Assembly (NCBI RefSeq): GCF_029227855.1
Contig: NZ_CP074356.1
Strand: one strand, 5' to 3'
DNA: 64,000 nucleotides
From: Escherichia coli
GTDB taxonomy: Bacteria; Pseudomonadota; Gammaproteobacteria; Enterobacterales; Enterobacteriaceae
The first letter of the stretch is position 1. Every line of letters starts with the position of its first letter. The notes below the pieces were generated by a model. That model saw only the letters and a program-made list of their open reading frames with translations. It searched no databases and was not told the DNA's origin. Positions 21,381 to 57,505 of the stretch are shown here, in pieces. A program made the position numbers and the translations under genes.

Positions 21381-21408
21381 CCATATATGTCCCCCCCTCC
21401 CTGACTGA

Positions 21409-21714
<306 letters not shown>

Positions 21715-47478: not shown

Positions 47479-47898
47479 TCAGAACGTCACGCCAGCACAG
47501 AGAATGATATTCGCATACGGAGAACATTCTCCGCTGCGAATTACCGCCTGACTTTCTGCGGTTTGTTGTTTGAATTGTTCATGCGTGGTGTAACGAATTT
47601 CAATGGTATTTCCCTGGTGTTTTTGCAGCTGCTCAAGGTGAGTGAGCAACGTTTCGTGGAGTTGCGGATTATGTTGTTTGATCTCTTCCGCGATAATGGC
47701 AGCCTCGACCTGCATTTCATTTGTGACGACGCCCAGCACCTGCATAAAAGAAGGTACACCCTGGGTTAATGCCATATCGATACGCGTTGTACTTTTGGGG
47801 ATGGGTAAACCAGCATCACACACCACCAGCGTATCGGTATGTCCCAGACGGGAGATCACCGATGAAATATCAGAATTAAGAACGGTGCCTTTTTTCAT
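47479..47898 (-). CDS. rbsD: D-ribose pyranase
   Basis: Translation from ATG 47896-47898: [34 protein letters not shown] (139 aa); the ORF track starts 4 codons upstream. Confidence 0.92.
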
Positions 47899-47910
47899 TT
47901 TTTTCTCCAT

Positions 47911-47928
47911 CAGCGAAACGTTTCGCTG
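47911..47928. promoter_or_regulatory. rbs operator (RbsR binding site)
   Basis: Perfect 18-bp palindrome cagcgaaacgtttcgctg immediately upstream of rbsD; LacI-family operator architecture. Confidence 0.7.
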
Positions 47929-48064
47929 ACCCGCAGTTTAATCCTGACTGAGTTGGGAAAACCATCGTGACGTTACGGAAATGTGATCAACCTCGAAACG
48001 TTTTACATGGTGATTAACCATGAAAACAAAAACGCCCCCTTATGGAGAAAGGAGGCGTCTGGCG

Positions 48065-49933
48065 TTAGATTTCGACCTGAGTACCCAGTTCGATAACCCT
48101 GTTTGGCGGAATTTCAAATTGATCTGGTGCACGCAGCGCATTACGTTGCAGCAGCAAGTACAGCTTGCCGCGCAGACGCAAATACCACGGGCGTTTGCCG
48201 AGGATCAACGACTCATGCGACATAAAGAAGGAGGTTTCCATCATCCGGCAACTTAATCCTTCCAGACCGCAGCGGTGGAAAACTTCTTCCACGTTTGGCG
48301 TTTCTCGCCAACCATAACTTGCCACCACGCGCCAGAAAGTGGGCGACAGTTGTTCAATCTGTACCCGACGGACATTATGGACATATGGCGCGTCTTCGGT
48401 ACGCAGAGTTAACAGAATCACCCGCTCATGCAATACCTTGTTATGTTTAAGGTTATGCATCAGCGCAAAGGGAATGACGTTGATTGCACGCGACATATAC
48501 ACCGCGGTCCCGGGCACGCGAACAGGCGGTGATTTCTCCAGCGAAGCAATCATCGCTTCCAGAGAGTTACCATGTTCATGCATCCGCCGCAGCAAGCGGA
48601 AACGCTCGCTCTTCCAGGTGGTCATCACGATAAACATCACAGTACCGAGGCTCAATGGCAACCAGCCGCCGGAGAGCAGTTTATCGAGGTTAGCGGTGAA
48701 CAATGGAATATCGACACAAAGGAAAGCAATCAGGATCAGCGCAACAAAATACTTATTCCAGTGCCAGTTCTGACGTGCCACGGTAGTCGAGAGAATAGAC
48801 GTCAGCACCATGGTTCCGGTCACCGCAATCCCGTACGCCGCCGCCAGGTTGCTGGAGTGCTCAAAGCTGACAATCACAATCACGACCGCGACATAGAGCA
48901 TCCAGTTCACAAACGGAATATAGATTTGCCCTGACTCCATTTCGGAGGTGTGAATAATGCGCATCGGCGACAAATATCCCAGACGTACCGCCTGACGCGT
49001 CAATGAGAAGACGCCAGAGATAACCGCCTGCGAGGCAATTACCGTCGCCAGTGCGGCGATGATCAGCAGCGGGATCAGCGCCCAGTCCGGTGCCAACAGG
49101 AAGAACGGGTTCTTAATCGCTTCCGGGTTCTTTAACAACAGCGCTCCCTGACCGAAGTAATTAAGGGTCAAGGAAGGTAATACGACGGTGAACCACGCCA
49201 GGCGAATAGGGAACTTACCAAAGTGCCCCATATCAGCATACAGCGCCTCGACCCCCGTAATCGACAACACCACTGCCCCTAATGCAATAAAAGAAACCGT
49301 TTTGTATTCAAGGAAGAAATGCACCGCCCACATTGGATTCAGCGCATGCAGCACTTCCGGGTTAGCAATAATGCTACGTAACCCCAGTCCTGCCAGAATC
49401 AAAAACCAGGTCAGCATGATCGGCGCAAACAGCTTACCGACCATAGCCGTGCCATGTTTTTGAATCATAAATAATAAAGTGAGAACGATAATTGAGAGGG
49501 GAACTATCCAGGTATCCAGCTGCGGGGCGACGATTTCCAGACCTTCAATGGCTGACATCACCGAAATAGCGGGTGTTATGACGACTTCACCATAGAAAAA
49601 GCTGCCGCCGATTAGCCCCATAATCACCAGCATTGATGTGGTTCGCGCCGACGTATTACGCCCGGCAAGCGACATCAACGTCAGGATCCCCCCCTCACCG
49701 GCGTTATCTGCCCGCATCACGAAGGTGAGATATTTAATGGAAACCACAAAGATTAGCAGCCAGAAGATCAGCGATAAAAAGCCAAACACGGCATCGCGTT
49801 CAACGCCAAAACCAAACTGGCCGGACAAACATTCACGAAGTGTATATAACGGGCTGGTACCAATATCGCCGTAGACAACTCCAATCGCCGCGAGGGTAAT
49901 CGCGGGCAATGATTGCTTATTATCAGTGCTCAT
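48065..49933 (-). CDS. kup: Low-affinity K+ uptake transporter Kup (TrkD)
   Basis: 622-aa polytopic [45 protein letters not shown]. Confidence 0.95.
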
Positions 49934-50155
49934 AGACTAGTCTTTCGTTGAAATATGAAATGTGTGCTTAGTCCCTTGGCCCACAAAAAAGCGCACAGTA
50001 TGCACGATTAACGGCAAAATCGTACTCCTAAATGCGGCCACATTAACCTGGCTCAAAGAAAAATACCCCCCCTTTGAGACTATTTTAGCCACCAGCAAGA
50101 AACGTCTATACTCGCAATTTACGCAGAACTTTTGACGAAAGGACGCCACTTCATT

Positions 50156-51652
50156 ATGGCTCACCCTCATTTATTAGCGGAAAGAATTTCCCGCCTGAGC
50201 AGTTCGTTGGAAAAGGGGCTTTATGAACGTAGCCACGCCATCCGCTTGTGTTTATTAGCGGCATTAAGTGGTGAAAGTGTGTTCCTCCTTGGCCCGCCAG
50301 GTATTGCCAAAAGTTTGATCGCCCGGCGCTTAAAATTCGCCTTTCAGAATGCCCGCGCGTTTGAATATCTGATGACCCGCTTCTCCACGCCGGAAGAAGT
50401 TTTTGGTCCCCTTTCTATTCAGGCGCTAAAAGATGAAGGGCGCTATGAACGTTTAACCAGCGGTTACCTGCCGGAAGCAGAAATTGTCTTTCTGGATGAG
50501 ATCTGGAAAGCGGGCCCGGCAATTCTTAATACCTTGCTCACCGCCATTAACGAGCGCCAGTTCCGCAACGGTGCACACGTAGAAAAAATCCCGATGCGTC
50601 TGCTGGTGGCGGCCTCCAACGAGCTGCCGGAAGCAGACAGCAGTCTGGAAGCGTTATATGACCGCATGCTGATTCGTCTGTGGTTAGATAAAGTGCAGGA
50701 TAAAGCGAATTTCCGCTCCATGCTGACCAGTCAACAGGATGAAAACGACAATCCGGTTCCTGATGCCTTGCAGGTCACAGATGAAGAATATGAACGCTGG
50801 CAGAAAGAGATTGGTGAAATTACGCTGCCCGATCATGTATTTGAGCTGATTTTTATGCTGCGCCAGCAACTGGATAAATTACCGGATGCGCCTTATGTCT
50901 CGGATCGTCGCTGGAAAAAAGCGATCCGCTTATTGCAGGCCAGCGCCTTTTTTAGCGGTCGCAGTGCTGTTGCCCCGGTAGATCTCATTTTGCTGAAAGA
51001 TTGCCTGTGGTATGACGCGCAAAGCCTGAATTTGATACAACAACAAATTGATGTATTGATGACCGGTCACGCCTGGCAACAGCAAGGGATGTTGACTCGC
51101 CTTGGCGCGATTGTGCAACGTCACCTGCAACTCCAGCAGCAACAAAGCGATAAAACAGCCTTAACGGTAATTCGTCTGGGCGGCATTTTCAGCCGTCGTC
51201 AGCAGTATCAACTTCCTGTTAACGTTACTGCTTCCACTCTGACTCTGCTGCTGCAAAAACCGTTAAAATTGCATGATATGGAAGTGGTTCATATCTCCTT
51301 TGAGCGTAACGCGCTGGAACAGTGGCTGAGTAAAGGTGGTGAAATTCGCGGCAAACTGAACGGTATCGGCTTTGCCCAGAAATTGAATCTGGAAGTGGAT
51401 AGCGCCCAACATCTTGTTGTACGCGATGTAAGTTTACAAGGCAGTACGCTGGCACTTCCCGGTTCATCGGCTGAAGGTCTGCCAGGTGAAATAAAACAAC
51501 AACTGGAAGAGCTTGAAAGTGACTGGCGCAAGCAACACGCTTTATTCAGCGAACAGCAAAAATGTCTGTTTATCCCTGGCGACTGGTTAGGTCGCATTGA
51601 AGCCAGCCTACAGGATGTCGGCGCACAGATTCGCCAGGCACAACAATGCTAA
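50156..51652 (+). CDS. ravA: MoxR-family AAA+ ATPase RavA
   Basis: Translation from ATG 50156: [53 protein letters not shown] (498 aa); the ORF track starts 8 codons upstream. Confidence 0.93.
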
Positions 51653-53097
51653 CGCTGGATACGCTTAATGTGATGCTGGCCGTCAGCGAAGAGGGATTGA
51701 TCGAAGAGATGATCATCGCGCTGCTGGCCTCACCGCAGCTGGCAGTCTTCTTTGAAAAATTCCCACGACTGAAGGCTGCAATCACTGATGATGTTCCCCG
51801 CTGGCGTGAGGCGCTGCGCAGTCGGCTGAAAGATGCCCGAGTCCCGCCGGAACTCACCGAAGAGGTGATGTGCTATCAGCAAAGCCAGCTCCTCTCCACG
51901 CCGCAGTTTATTGTGCAGCTACCACAGATCCTGGACTTACTGCATCGTCTGAATTCCCCATGGGCAGAACAAGCCCGACAGTTGGTTGATGCTAACAGCA
52001 CGATCACTTCAGCGTTACATACGCTTTTCCTCCAGCGTTGGCGTTTAAGTCTGATCGTGCAAGCAACGACGTTAAATCAACAGCTATTAGAAGAAGAACG
52101 CGAACAACTGTTAAGTGAAGTTCAGGAACGCATGACGCTGAGCGGACAACTTGAACCGATTCTCGCAGATAACAATACCGCAGCTGGTCGTCTGTGGGAT
52201 ATGAGCGCCGGTCAGCTTAAACGTGGCGACTATCAGTTGATTGTGAAATACGGTGAATTTCTTAACGAACAGCCGGAACTGAAACGCCTGGCAGAACAGC
52301 TGGGGCGTTCCCGGGAAGCCAAATCAATACCGCGTAACGATGCGCAGATGGAAGCCTTCCGCACCATGGTGCGCGAACCGGCAACTGTTCCTGAGCAGGT
52401 TGATGGTCTGCAACAAAGCGATGATATTTTACGTCTCCTGCCGCCAGAACTGGCGACACTAGGGATAACGGAACTGGAGTATGAGTTTTACCGTCGGCTG
52501 GTGGAAAAACAGTTGCTCACCTATCGCCTGCACGGTGAGTCGTGGCGTGAAAAAGTGATCGAACGTCCGGTGGTACATAAAGATTACGATGAACAGCCGC
52601 GCGGGCCGTTTATTGTCTGTGTGGATACTTCCGGCTCAATGGGCGGCTTTAATGAACAGTGTGCGAAAGCGTTCTGCCTGGCCTTGATGCGCATTGCTCT
52701 CGCTGAAAACCGGCGCTGCTATATTATGCTATTTTCCACCGAGATCGTCCGTTATGAGCTTTCAGGCCCACAAGGCATCGAACAAGCAATCCGTTTTTTA
52801 AGCCAGCAGTTTCGTGGCGGCACCGATCTTGCCAGTTGTTTTCGCGCCATTATGGAACGCTTGCAAAGCAGGGAATGGTTTGATGCCGACGCGGTGGTGA
52901 TTTCTGATTTTATCGCTCAGCGGTTGCCTGACGACGTGACGAGTAAAGTGAAAGAGCTGCAGCGGGTACATCAGCATCGCTTTCATGCCGTGGCGATGTC
53001 GGCACACGGCAAACCCGGCATCATGCGCATTTTCGATCATATCTGGCGCTTTGATACCGGGATGCGAAGCCGCCTGCTCAGACGCTGGCGGCGATAA
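51646..53097 (+). CDS. viaA: von Willebrand factor A-domain protein ViaA
   Basis: 483-aa [34 protein letters not shown] with a C-terminal VWA region (VCVDTSGSM); overlaps ravA by 7 nt. Confidence 0.93.
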
Positions 53098-53101
53098 ATT
53101 A

Positions 53102-54094
53102 TTACAGCAGAGAAGGGACGTTCTCGCGAACAGCAGCTGGCCATACACCACACTGAACCTGGCCGATATGCGGCAGTTGCAGCAGCAGCATGGTCAAACG
53201 AGACTGGCCGATACCGCCGCCGATGGTCTGCGGCATTTCACCGCGCAGCAGCGCCTGATGCCACTCCAGCTCCAGACGATCTTCATCACCGGTCAGCGCC
53301 AACTGATGCTTCAACGTGTCGGCATCCACGCGGATCCCCATGGAAGAAAGCTCAAACGCATCTTCCAGTACAGGGTTCCACACCAGAATATCGCCGTTCA
53401 GACCCGCATGACCCAGCTCTGACGGGGTGCTCCAGTCATCATAATCCGGTGCGCGCACGTCGTGGCGATGACCATCGCTCAGCTTGCCGCCAATCCCGAC
53501 AAGGAATACCGCGCCAAGATCTTTCGCTATCGCCCGCTCACGCCCTTTGGCATCGAGATCCGGATAACGAGACAGTAACTCCTGGCTGTGTACGAAGTGG
53601 ATCTGATCCGGCAGGAACGGTGCCAGGCCAAACTCTTCGCTAACCGCAGCTTCGGTTGCTTTAATTCCCGCCCAGATCGCCTCTACCGTGCTTTTCAGAG
53701 TCGAGAATTGACGCTCACCGTCGCCCATTACGCGTTCCCAGTCCCACTGGTCAACATAGATCGAGTGCAACGGAGAAAGACGGTCTTCATCGGGGCGAAG
53801 GGCTTTCATGTGCGTGTACAGTCCTTCGCCCGCGCTGAAGTCGTGTTGCCCTAAGGTCTGACGTTTCCACTTCGCCAGTGAATGAACCACTTCGAACTGG
53901 GCATCAGGCAGAGCTTTCACTTTTACCTGCACCGCTTTTTCACAGCCCGACAAGTTATCCTGCGTGCCATCCCCCACACGGCTAAGAATCGGCGCCTGGA
54001 CTTCGATCAGCCCCAGACGTTCTTCCAGTTGGCGAGAAAAGTGAGATTTCACGAAGCTAATTTGGCGTTGTTTGGCAATGTAAGCGGTTTTCAT
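53102..54094 (-). CDS. asnA: Aspartate-ammonia ligase (asparagine synthetase A)
   Basis: 330-aa [53 protein letters not shown]. Confidence 0.96.
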
Positions 54095-54245
54095 TTTTTA
54101 TACTCCTGCGTCCTGTTGCTTATGATTAAGCAACAAAAACCGACACACATGCAATAATCATTCAATAAAAAGCCTAACACACTTTTGATTCATTAAAAAA
54201 GAAGGCTAAAATAGAATGAATCATCAATCTGCATAAGAAAATCCT

Positions 54246-54704
54246 ATGGAAAATTATCTGATCGACAATCTGGACCGTGGCATCCTGGAAGCATTAATGG
54301 GCAATGCGCGCACCGCTTACGCCGAACTGGCGAAACAATTTGGCGTCAGTCCGGGGACGATTCACGTTCGAGTAGAGAAAATGAAGCAGGCGGGGATCAT
54401 TACCGGGGCGCGTATTGATGTCAGCCCGAAGCAGCTCGGTTATGACGTAGGCTGCTTTATCGGCATTATATTAAAGAGCGCCAAAGACTACCCTTCCGCG
54501 CTGGCAAAGCTGGAAAGCCTTGATGAAGTCACTGAAGCCTATTACACAACCGGCCACTACAGCATCTTTATAAAAGTGATGTGCCGTTCGATCGACGCTC
54601 TCCAGCATGTACTTATCAACAAGATCCAAACAATTGATGAAATTCAGTCCACCGAGACATTGATCGTCCTGCAAAACCCGATCATGCGTACCATCAAGCC
54701 ATAA
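54246..54704 (+). CDS. asnC: Lrp/AsnC-family transcriptional regulator AsnC
   Basis: 152-aa ORF MENYLIDNLDRGILEALMGNARTAYAELAKQFGVSPGTIHVRVEKMKQAGIITG. Confidence 0.96.
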   Translation: MENYLIDNLDRGILEALMGNARTAYAELAKQFGVSPGTIHVRVEKMKQAGIITGARIDVSPKQLGYDVGCFIGIILKSAKDYPSALAKLESLDEVTEAYYTTGHYSIFIKVMCRSIDALQHVLINKIQTIDEIQSTETLIVLQNPIMRTIKP

Positions 54705-54793
54705 TCGGCTTTTTTAATCCCATACTTTTCCACAGGTAGATCCCAACGCGTTCACAGCGTACAATACGCCACTCTTAATAAAGGTGGCGGTTT

Positions 54794-55237
54794 ATGGCAG
54801 ATATCACTCTTATCAGCGGCAGCACCCTCGGCGGTGCCGAATATGTAGCAGAACACCTGGCTGAAAAGCTGGAAGAGGCGGGTTTTACCACCGAAACGCT
54901 GCACGGTCCGCTGTTGGAAGATTTATCTGCCTCGGGGATCTGGCTGATTATCAGCTCCACCCACGGTGCCGGAGATATTCCGGACAACCTTTCTCCTTTC
55001 TATGAAGCATTGCAGGAACAGAAGCCCGATCTTTCTGCGGTCCGCTTTGGCGCAATCGGTATTGGCAGTCGTGAATATGACACCTTTTGTGGGGCTATCG
55101 ATAAACTCGAGGCAGAACTCAAAAATTCCGGTGCAAAACAGACAGGCGAAACACTGAAGATCAACATTCTTGATCACGACATTCCGGAAGATCCGGCAGA
55201 AGAATGGCTGGGATCGTGGATTAATTTACTCAAATAA
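54794..55237 (+). CDS. mioC: FMN-binding flavodoxin-like protein MioC
   Basis: 147-aa ORF MADITLISGSTLGGAEYVAEHLAEKLEEAGFTTETLHGPLLEDL; transcribed toward oriC. Confidence 0.95.
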   Translation: MADITLISGSTLGGAEYVAEHLAEKLEEAGFTTETLHGPLLEDLSASGIWLIISSTHGAGDIPDNLSPFYEALQEQKPDLSAVRFGAIGIGSREYDTFCGAIDKLEAELKNSGAKQTGETLKINILDHDIPEDPAEEWLGSWINLLK

Positions 55238-55244
55238 GTATACA

Positions 55245-55527
55245 GATCGTGCGATCTACTGTGGATAACTCTGTCAGGAAGCTTGGATCAACCGGTAGTT
55301 ATCCAAAGAACAACCGTTGTTCAGTTTTTGAGTTGTGTATAACCCCTCATTCTGATCCCAGCTTATACGGTCCAGGATCACCGATCATTCACAGTTAATG
55401 ATCCTTTCCAGGTTGTTGATCTTAAAAGCCGGATCCTTGTTATCCACAGGGCAGTGCGATCCTAATAAGAGATCACAATAGAACAGATCTCTAAATAAAT
55501 AGATCTTCTTTTTAATACCCAGGATCC
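55245..55527. other. oriC: Chromosomal replication origin oriC
   Basis: DnaA boxes tgtggataa (R4, 55260-55268), ttatccaaa (55299-55307), tgtgtataa (R2, 55334-55342), ttatccaca (R1, 55440-55448); about 14 GATC sites; AT-rich 13-mers adjacent; lies between mioC and mnmG. Confidence 0.95.
55462..55505. repeat. oriC DNA unwinding element: three AT-rich 13-mers
   Basis: Reverse complements of gatctcttattag (55462-55474), gatctgttctatt (55477-55489) and gatctatttattt (55493-55505). Confidence 0.9.
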
Positions 55528-55615
55528 CAGGTCTTTCTCAAGCCGACAAAGTTGAGTAGAATCCACGGCCCGGGCTTCAATCCATTTTCATACCGCGTTA
55601 TGCGAGGCAATCACC

Positions 55616-57505
55616 ATGTTTTATCCGGATCCTTTTGACGTCATCATCATTGGCGGGGGTCATGCAGGCACCGAGGCCGCGATGGCCGCGGCGCGTATGG
55701 GTCAACAGACTCTGCTTTTGACACACAATATCGACACTCTGGGGCAGATGAGCTGCAACCCGGCGATCGGCGGTATTGGGAAGGGACATCTGGTAAAAGA
55801 AGTGGATGCACTCGGCGGTCTGATGGCGAAAGCGATCGATCAAGCGGGTATCCAGTTTAGGATACTAAACGCAAGCAAAGGACCGGCGGTTCGCGCTACC
55901 CGAGCTCAGGCGGATCGTGTGCTCTACCGTCAGGCGGTACGTACGGCGCTGGAGAACCAACCGAACCTGATGATCTTCCAGCAGGCGGTTGAAGATCTTA
56001 TTGTCGAAAACGATCGCGTGGTCGGTGCTGTTACCCAAATGGGACTGAAGTTCCGTGCCAAAGCCGTCGTGCTCACCGTTGGGACGTTCCTCGACGGTAA
56101 AATTCATATCGGTCTGGATAATTACAGCGGTGGCCGTGCTGGTGATCCGCCGTCCATTCCGCTTTCTCGCCGTTTGCGTGAACTGCCGCTGCGCGTTGGT
56201 CGTCTGAAAACCGGGACACCACCGCGTATTGATGCTCGAACTATCGACTTTAGTGTGCTGGCGCAACAGCATGGCGATAACCCAATGCCGGTATTCTCGT
56301 TTATGGGCAATGCGTCCCAGCATCCCCAGCAGGTGCCGTGTTATATCACTCATACCAACGAGAAAACCCATGATGTGATCCGCAGTAACCTCGATCGTAG
56401 CCCAATGTATGCAGGGGTGATCGAAGGTGTCGGCCCACGCTACTGCCCGTCGATCGAAGACAAAGTCATGCGCTTCGCCGACAGAAATCAGCATCAGATC
56501 TTCCTTGAACCGGAAGGACTGACCTCTAATGAAATTTATCCGAACGGTATCTCCACCAGCCTGCCGTTCGATGTGCAGATGCAAATCGTCCGCTCTATGC
56601 AGGGGATGGAAAACGCGAAGATCGTGCGTCCGGGTTATGCCATTGAGTATGACTTCTTCGATCCTCGCGACCTGAAACCGACGCTGGAGAGCAAGTTTAT
56701 CCAGGGGCTGTTCTTTGCTGGTCAGATTAACGGCACTACCGGTTACGAAGAAGCCGCTGCGCAAGGTTTGCTGGCCGGTCTTAACGCTGCCCGTCTGTCT
56801 GCTGACAAAGAAGGTTGGGCTCCGGCACGTTCTCAGGCGTATCTCGGCGTACTAGTTGATGACCTGTGCACTTTAGGAACCAAAGAACCGTATCGTATGT
56901 TTACTTCGCGCGCAGAATATCGTCTGATGCTACGCGAAGATAATGCGGATCTGCGTTTGACTGAAATCGGTCGTGAACTGGGCCTGGTGGATGACGAACG
57001 TTGGGCGCGCTTTAACGAGAAACTTGAGAATATCGAGCGTGAGCGTCAGCGTCTGAAATCGACCTGGGTAACCCCGTCGGCGGAAGCTGCAGCCGAAGTG
57101 AATGCTCACCTGACTGCGCCGCTTTCCCGTGAAGCCAGTGGTGAAGATCTGCTGCGTCGTCCGGAAATGACTTATGAAAAATTAACCACGCTGACGCCGT
57201 TTGCCCCTGCATTGACAGACGAACAGGCGGCGGAACAGGTTGAGATTCAGGTTAAATACGAAGGTTATATCGCGCGCCAGCAAGATGAGATCGAAAAGCA
57301 GCTGCGTAACGAGAACACCCTGCTACCCGCGACACTGGATTACCGCCAGGTATCCGGTCTTTCTAACGAAGTGATCGCCAAACTTAACGATCACAAACCA
57401 GCCTCTATCGGCCAGGCTTCGCGTATTTCTGGCGTCACGCCTGCGGCCATCTCCATTCTGCTGGTGTGGCTGAAAAAACAGGGTATGCTGCGTCGTAGCG
57501 CATAA
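55616..57505 (+). CDS. mnmG: tRNA uridine 5-carboxymethylaminomethyl modification enzyme MnmG (GidA)
   Basis: 629-aa [56 protein letters not shown] with an FAD-binding GxGxxG motif. Confidence 0.96.

Follow-up and report, generated by a model that had tools for sequence, protein, structure and literature searches.

The MoxR AAA+ ATPase RavA forms hexamers, and its gene is co-transcribed with that of ViaA (Wong 2014) in an operon reported to be under sigma-S and Fnr control. The LARA domain of RavA binds LdcI to form a 3.3-MDa LdcI-RavA cage (Bhandari 2023 among the sources), and binding of the same domain to phosphatidylglycerol has been reported (Felix 2022, Bhandari 2023). The middle domain of ViaA was reported to bind the triple-helical bundle of RavA and to raise its ATPase activity about 3-fold (Bhandari 2023). 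Deletion of ravA-viaA raises aminoglycoside tolerance in anaerobic, fumarate-respiring E. coli and in aerobic V. cholerae (Krin 2023 for V. cholerae). The general interest of the pair lies in its modulation of killing by aminoglycosides, and of persistence, in anaerobic cells. A preliminary description of the DNA analyzed here called the pair a described system with a debated physiological substrate, which agrees with the literature: published groups still disagree, in papers up to 2025. The literature review proposed in that description was carried out, and no paper from 2024-2026 settling the mechanism was found in the literature searched.

Locus and gene identity

The window is the whole 64-kb stretch of E. 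coli DNA (64,000 nucleotides) that was analyzed. It contains the following two genes.

50156-51652, + strand: ravA, encoding the MoxR-class AAA+ ATPase RavA, 498 aa (NCBIfam, Pfam, PDB, and K-12 matches).
51646-53097, + strand: viaA, encoding ViaA, the VWA-domain partner that stimulates RavA, 483 aa (NCBIfam, Pfam, PDB, and K-12 matches).

The identities and coordinates given to both genes in the preliminary description were borne out by the ORF list, by direct reading of the sequence, and by NCBIfam equivalog matches. ravA extends from the ATG at 50156 to the TAA at 51650-51652 (1497 nt), and viaA extends from the ATG at 51646 to a stop codon ending at 53097 (1452 nt), in both the ORF list and the direct reading. 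RavA matched PRK13531 at 992.9 bits (cut-off 681) over positions 1-498 of 498, and ViaA matched PRK10997 at 878.3 bits (cut-off 500) over residues 1-483. Pfam assigned bpMoxR/AAA_5, AAA_lid_8 (4.9e-22), LARA_dom PF20265 (1e-39), and ATPase_RavA_C PF12592 (1.8e-23) to RavA, and VWA_CoxE and VWA_2 to residues 320-457 of ViaA. RavA is identical to the chains of PDB 3nbx (crystal) and 6q7l (cryo-EM) at 497 of 498 residues, and residues 1-191 of ViaA are 100% identical to the NMR structure PDB 7ugc (chain 7ugc_A). The mechanical ORF list starts ravA at an upstream in-frame TTG at 50132. As judged by agreement with PRK13531 end to end, with the PDB RavA chains, and with the K-12 annotation, the start is the ATG at 50156 and not this TTG.

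The window is collinear with positions 3,917,249-3,981,293 of K-12 MG1655 (reverse strand) at 98.6-99.1% identity, and the order kup, ravA-viaA, asnA-asnC-mioC-oriC is the same as in K-12. A 3168-bp segment bounded by the ends of kup and asnA has 100% identity with many complete E. coli genomes, and at least 80% of its length is present in 5414 of 5426 complete E. coli genomes, always on the chromosome. We give a probability of about 0.9 to the locus being an intact copy of the canonical E. coli ravA-viaA operon.

In K-12 MG1655, ravA and viaA (b3746-b3745, formerly yieN-yieM) have the same gene order, the same lengths (498 and 483 aa), and the same neighbors, kup and asnA. The K-12 genes are located at 3929597-3931093 (ravA) and 3928152-3929603 (viaA) with a 7-nt overlap, and the junction sequence is identical to that of the window. 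Nucleotide identity with K-12 is 99.1% for ravA (13 nt differences) and 98.7% for viaA (19 nt differences), with a single, conservative amino acid difference in each protein: S385N in the LARA domain of RavA (codon 51308-51310) and T237A in the middle domain of ViaA (codon 52354-52356). The window alleles of both genes are common to many other E. coli genomes at 100% identity.

Functional residues of RavA and ViaA

The domains and motifs on which the published functions depend were located as follows, with the limits of the first two ViaA domains taken from Bhandari 2023.

50291-50314, + strand: RavA Walker A, GPPGIAKS, aa 46-53, present and unchanged relative to K-12; the motif is quoted in Wong 2014.
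50477-50506, + strand: RavA Walker B region with D114 and E115, as in K-12 and both invariant in 88/88 orthologues.
51158-51463, + strand: RavA LARA domain, aa 335-436 (Pfam PF20265), containing N385.
51646-52218, + strand: ViaA N-terminal helical domain (NTV, "VAN fold"), aa 1-191, defined also by the identity to 7ugc_A.
52219-52578, + strand: ViaA middle domain, aa 192-311, containing A237.
52579-53094, + strand: ViaA C-terminal VWA domain, aa 312-483, including the residues matched by Pfam.
52624-52638, 52822-52824, and 52906-52908, + strand: ViaA MIDAS, D327-T-S329-G-S331, T393, and D421, respectively, the same as in K-12.
53056-53094, + strand: amphipathic Arg-rich helix at the C terminus of ViaA, in which R476 and R479 are the same as in K-12.

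Lysine 52 of the Walker A motif is the residue changed to K52Q in published ATPase-dead controls. Walker A is invariant in all 88 RavA orthologues, a count that is circular since the loci were recruited by the Walker A pattern. R476 and R479 of ViaA are the residues that bind phosphatidic acid (PA) and cardiolipin (Felix 2022); R476 is conserved in 67 of 72 aligned sequences, and position 479 is R or K in 68 of 72. The comparison of the ViaA VWA/MIDAS residues with K-12 that had been proposed in the preliminary description was run, and the MIDAS is identical to that of K-12, with all five residues invariant in 70/70 full-length ViaA orthologues, so the window strain adds nothing new.

A strain-specific change in functional residues was considered and rejected because S385N and T237A fall in hypervariable columns, away from the Walker, MIDAS, and lipid-helix residues. 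At RavA column 385, D, S, E, T, A, K, and N all occur across orthologues; ViaA column 237 is likewise hypervariable, and the two are among the most variable columns (approximately 70-90 species). From the near-identity of the window RavA to the characterized K-12 protein, we infer ATPase activity, hexamer formation, and LdcI binding. The ravA-viaA locus is already known, and nothing in the window copy is strain-specific.

Promoter region and downstream end

49934-50155, + strand: kup-ravA divergent intergenic region, 222 bp, 100% identical to K-12.

A 206-bp fragment of this region, upstream of ravA, served as the native promoter in Wong 2014, and the primer RAVA2_forward from the same study is located at approximately 49957. 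The kup-ravA intergenic region contains no sigma-70 consensus and no FNR box at ≤2 mismatches. In the scanned region there was a single sigma-70-like match, on the - strand within viaA, a total lower than that expected from shuffles. Over the window as a whole, 28 FNR half-sites were matched (30.4 expected), and the nearest of them, at 49913-49926, falls in kup. Since no promoter or FNR site was recognized, the published sigma-S and Fnr control is not confirmed from the sequence. One mRNA from a promoter in the kup-ravA intergenic region, sigma-S- and Fnr-dependent according to the literature, would encode both RavA and ViaA.

There was no Rfam match at E ≤ 1 within 47500-56500, and no convincing intrinsic terminator was found after viaA or for the convergent asnA; the two genes end 4 nt apart (53097 and 53102). 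A 77-aa ORF on the - strand at 49937-50170 was treated as a mechanical ORF, with nothing annotated there in K-12 or in strain HCM-22C-2.

The ravA-viaA junction

51646-51652, + strand: ravA/viaA overlap, ATGCTAA, 7 nt, with the viaA start within the last two ravA sense codons and the stop codon.

The 7-nt overlap noted in the preliminary description is present both in the ORF list and on direct reading, and K-12 has the identical overlap. The viaA frame is -1 relative to ravA, and the only ribosome-binding element upstream of the viaA ATG is a weak AGG at 51636-51638 (at -10). Six other co-directional start/stop overlaps are found in the 64-kb window (wecB-wecC, 4 nt; wecC-rffG, 1 nt; rffH-rffC, 23 nt; wzxE-wecF, 4 nt; wecF-wzyE, 4 nt; ilvG-ilvM, 4 nt). 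The ravA-viaA overlap is real but not distinctive.

The junction was surveyed across species, each represented by one genome, by searching for the coding pattern of the RavA Walker A motif and by using tblastn and ORF tracing to locate the ravA stop and the viaA start. viaA lies directly after ravA on the same strand in 91/91 species with a readable junction, and the overlap or gap is ≤12 nt in 78 of these 91. The occurrence of ravA without viaA in other species was rejected, as in all 23 apparent cases the retrieved DNA runs out at, or no more than 481 nt from, the end of the RavA match. Junctions are listed below by group, with overlaps positive and gaps negative where a sign is given, followed by the number of loci with a Shine-Dalgarno (SD)-like 4-mer ≤15 nt upstream of viaA.

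Enterobacteriaceae, 28 loci: overlap of 7 nt in 19, 4 nt in 4, and 1 nt in 5; SD-like 4-mer in 1/28.
Erwiniaceae, 6 loci: overlap of 4 nt in 6/6, often with GTG starts; SD-like 4-mer in 0/6.
Other Enterobacterales, 22 loci: +1 to -7 nt; SD-like 4-mer in 4/22.
Vibrionales, 26 loci: mostly a gap of 8-14 nt; SD-like 4-mer in 24/26.
Aeromonadales, 8 loci: 0 to -95 nt; SD-like 4-mer in 7/8.

The 7-nt overlap is confined to Enterobacteriaceae; the tight linkage is conserved, but the exact overlap length is not. The junction of E. albertii is a 1-nt overlap (TAATG), and the Vibrio ravA-viaA junction reads TAAGGAGnnnnATG.

The preliminary description took the overlap to imply co-translation as a pair. 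The suggestion of coupling stands, given the overlap and the weak AGG at the viaA start, but the wording was loose, and what we infer is better called probable translational coupling on one mRNA. The junction has the structure of a coupled pair, with the viaA start inside the end of ravA and weak independent ribosome binding (AGG only). Because of these two features, ribosomes ending ravA would most likely reinitiate at viaA, and ravA and viaA are probably translationally coupled by termination-reinitiation. With reinitiation, ViaA synthesis would follow that of RavA but yield less protein, which fits the approximately 350 RavA and 90 ViaA molecules counted per cell (Wong 2014). No paper joining viaA with translational coupling was found in the literature searched. 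Against the coupling step, the RNA fold at the junction is no better than that of shuffles (z = +0.84), so that no stable structure is predicted to mask the viaA start, and viaA could be initiated independently from the weak AGG.

The overlap could also be a neutral by-product of operon compaction without regulatory meaning, in which case a weak ribosome-binding site of its own would serve viaA independently. The absence of a predicted structured element at the junction is consistent with this alternative, as are the commonplace overlaps of 1, 4, 7, and 23 nt in the 64-kb window. In its favor, too, the length of the overlap drifts among close relatives (7, 4, and 1 nt within Enterobacteriaceae; 1 nt in E. 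albertii), with 4 nt in several genera, and Vibrionales use a gap and their own Shine-Dalgarno. A length of exactly 7 nt is clearly not required. However, the 34/34 junctions of Enterobacteriaceae and Erwiniaceae are kept in one phase class (1, 4, or 7 nt), nearly all without a Shine-Dalgarno, and the gapped lineages acquired a strong one. We consider a neutral overlap unlikely. The reciprocal pattern of overlap without SD and gap with SD speaks for selection of efficient viaA initiation along either of two routes, the one in E. coli presumably being termination-reinitiation.

A more specific version of the coupling reading is put forward tentatively, at clearly less than an even chance. It holds that viaA of Enterobacteriaceae and Erwiniaceae may have lost its own SD and may now rely on termination-reinitiation at a 1-, 4-, or 7-nt overlap, fixing ViaA at a sub-stoichiometric level of approximately one ViaA dimer per RavA hexamer, and that Vibrionales and Aeromonadales may initiate viaA independently from a strong SD in a short gap. 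If this is true, the two lineages arrive at their RavA:ViaA ratios by different means, and this might contribute to the different conditions under which the phenotype is seen, which are anaerobic for E. coli and aerobic for V. cholerae.

Function of the RavA-ViaA pair

On the published biochemistry, the middle domain of ViaA binds the RavA triple-helical bundle and stimulates ATP hydrolysis, the VWA domain and C-terminal Arg-rich helix of ViaA bring the pair to the inner membrane and/or fumarate reductase, and the LARA domain of RavA binds LdcI or phosphatidylglycerol. The net physiological effect with the best support is modulation of respiratory-complex function and proton motive force (pmf) in anaerobic cells low in energy, leading to aminoglycoside sensitization. 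Our best single reading is that RavA and its adaptor form a complex associated with the inner membrane and modulating both the function of respiratory complexes and pmf, with the direct client contested between FrdA and a lipid microdomain. For the client itself, we place no single mechanistic model higher than somewhat short of even odds.

The contest concerns fumarate reductase (Frd). The Houry group reported direct binding of the ViaA VWA domain (CTV) to FrdA, inhibition of Frd, and a persister phenotype dependent on frd (Bhandari 2023), and the phenotype is described as requiring frd, the RavA ATPase, and all three ViaA domains (Bhandari 2023, with Wong 2017 as cited therein). On these results, RavA-ViaA would be a dedicated chaperone or inhibitor of fumarate reductase in which the VWA domain binds free FrdA and RavA remodels it, lowering Frd activity and antibiotic persistence. 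The invariance of the MIDAS in 70 orthologues is consistent with a conserved protein-protein interface. The Gutsche and Barras groups, in contrast, obtained no interaction with purified FrdA or NuoEFG by BLI (Felix 2022), and Frd activity was not modulated (El Khoury 2023). They found that RavA binds phosphatidylglycerol, that ViaA binds PA and cardiolipin, that lipid-binding mutants abolish gentamicin sensitization, and that the aminoglycoside effect depends on pmf. The phenotype is also seen in aerobically grown V. cholerae, and this species is without Nuo yet has the aminoglycoside phenotype. A role dedicated to fumarate reductase is accordingly rated as doubtful.

Alternatively, the primary role of RavA would be in acid stress, through an LdcI-RavA cage guarding LdcI from ppGpp inhibition, with ViaA as an accessory and the aminoglycoside phenotype as secondary. 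In 497 of 498 residues the window RavA agrees with the solved structures of the cage, its LARA domain is intact, and literature support exists. However, viaA accompanies ravA in each of the 91 species examined, the LARA domain varies at and around column 385, and the aminoglycoside phenotype needs the lipid-binding residues of ViaA. In addition, a 2025 study of LdcI clustering treats the link and co-localization with RavA and ViaA as still for investigation, leaving them as future work. Acid stress as the primary role is considered improbable, well behind the role in fumarate reductase inhibition. The window copy is faithful to a well-described operon and has no bearing on what RavA-ViaA acts on.

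Comparison with known systems

RavA-ViaA resembles NorQ-NorD, CbbQ-CbbO, CoxD-CoxE, BchI/ChlI-BchD, and CobS-CobT, in which an AAA+ hexamer of the MoxR/AAA_5 type stands beside a VWA/MIDAS client adaptor. These other MoxR/VWA pairs have a defined client (non-heme iron insertion into cNOR, Rubisco reactivation, or metal chelation), whereas none is agreed for RavA-ViaA. Additions specific to the RavA-ViaA family are the LARA domain, the VAN-fold N-terminal domain of ViaA, and the C-terminal lipid-binding helix.

The ravA-viaA of Vibrionales, the group of the V. cholerae system (Krin et al. 2023), is likewise a two-gene unit in which viaA comes directly after ravA, and the MIDAS is invariant there too. 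Identity is approximately 42-46% for RavA and 31-36% for ViaA. The Vibrionales junction is usually an 8-14 nt gap with a GGAG-type Shine-Dalgarno, whereas that of the window is an overlap. The one small addition made by the comparison is this shift at the junction, from an overlap without SD in Enterobacteriaceae and Erwiniaceae to a short gap with SD in Vibrionales, which offers an inexpensive way to test what sets the ratio of RavA to ViaA.

Convergent 3' ends of viaA and asnA

The stop codons of the convergent genes viaA (+) and asnA (-) are separated by only 4 nt, and the two genes converge with the same stop spacing in K-12 MG1655.

53069-53104, viaA on + and asnA on -: convergent junction, stop codons 53097 and 53102
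53069-53092: GC-rich hairpin (GCCGCC...GGCGGC) within the viaA codons for the Arg-rich lipid-binding helix

No intrinsic terminator was predicted between the two stops or just past them; relative to asnA, encoded on the opposite strand, the hairpin lies 9 nt past the stop. The viaA and asnA transcripts probably overlap. The asnA mRNA was among the few altered in both the ravA-viaA deletion and overexpression strains (Wong 2014), a change that could be a cis effect.

kup-ravA intergenic region

At the upstream end of the operon, two features concern the kup-ravA intergenic region, one in the window and one in another E. coli strain.

49937-50170, -: ATG-initiated ORF of 77 aa, covering the intergenic region and running antisense over the start of ravA
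L124 581-1789: ISVsa5 transposase, corresponding to window ~49934-50155

The ORF is probably spurious, and annotation at its position was absent in K-12 and in one further E. coli record. The ISVsa5 (IS4-like) transposase is inserted in the kup-ravA promoter region of a single strain, E. coli HCM-22C-2 (locus L124, NZ_AP038228.1), whose locus is otherwise 100% identical to that in the window; this insertion could alter ravA-viaA expression there. The strain was obtained from chicken meat.

Position near oriC

From collinearity with K-12, oriC is predicted at ~55271-55502, between mioC and mnmG.

54794-55237: mioC

This placement, ~2.2 kb downstream of viaA, would make ravA and viaA two of the most origin-proximal genes. 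In fast-growing cells, gene dosage is highest near the origin.

Distribution of the locus and comparison with K-12

Among 5426 complete genomes, the ravA-viaA locus had no match in 4 and only a partial match in 8. The viaA frame is shortened to 330 aa in Arsenophonus nasoniae (L046) and to 45 aa in Phytobacter massiliensis (L102), with the MIDAS residues gone in both; these short frames may be pseudogenes or assembly errors, a viaA pseudogene being plausible in the insect symbiont A. nasoniae. The Salinivibrio loci (L028 and L107) have an apparent 14-nt ravA-viaA overlap, which rests on a putative start codon, whereas other Vibrionales have a gap of 8-14 nt.

The sole break in collinearity between the window and K-12 is at ~21405-21413 in the ppiC-yifN intergenic region, a difference of ~36 bp (K-12 3,959,841-3,959,877). 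The two also differ in ilvG.

29042-30688, -: ilvG, intact ORF of 548 aa

Disrupted ilvG is a well-known peculiarity of K-12. The gene is annotated as a frameshift pseudogene in K-12 MG1655 but is intact here, so the window is not from K-12.
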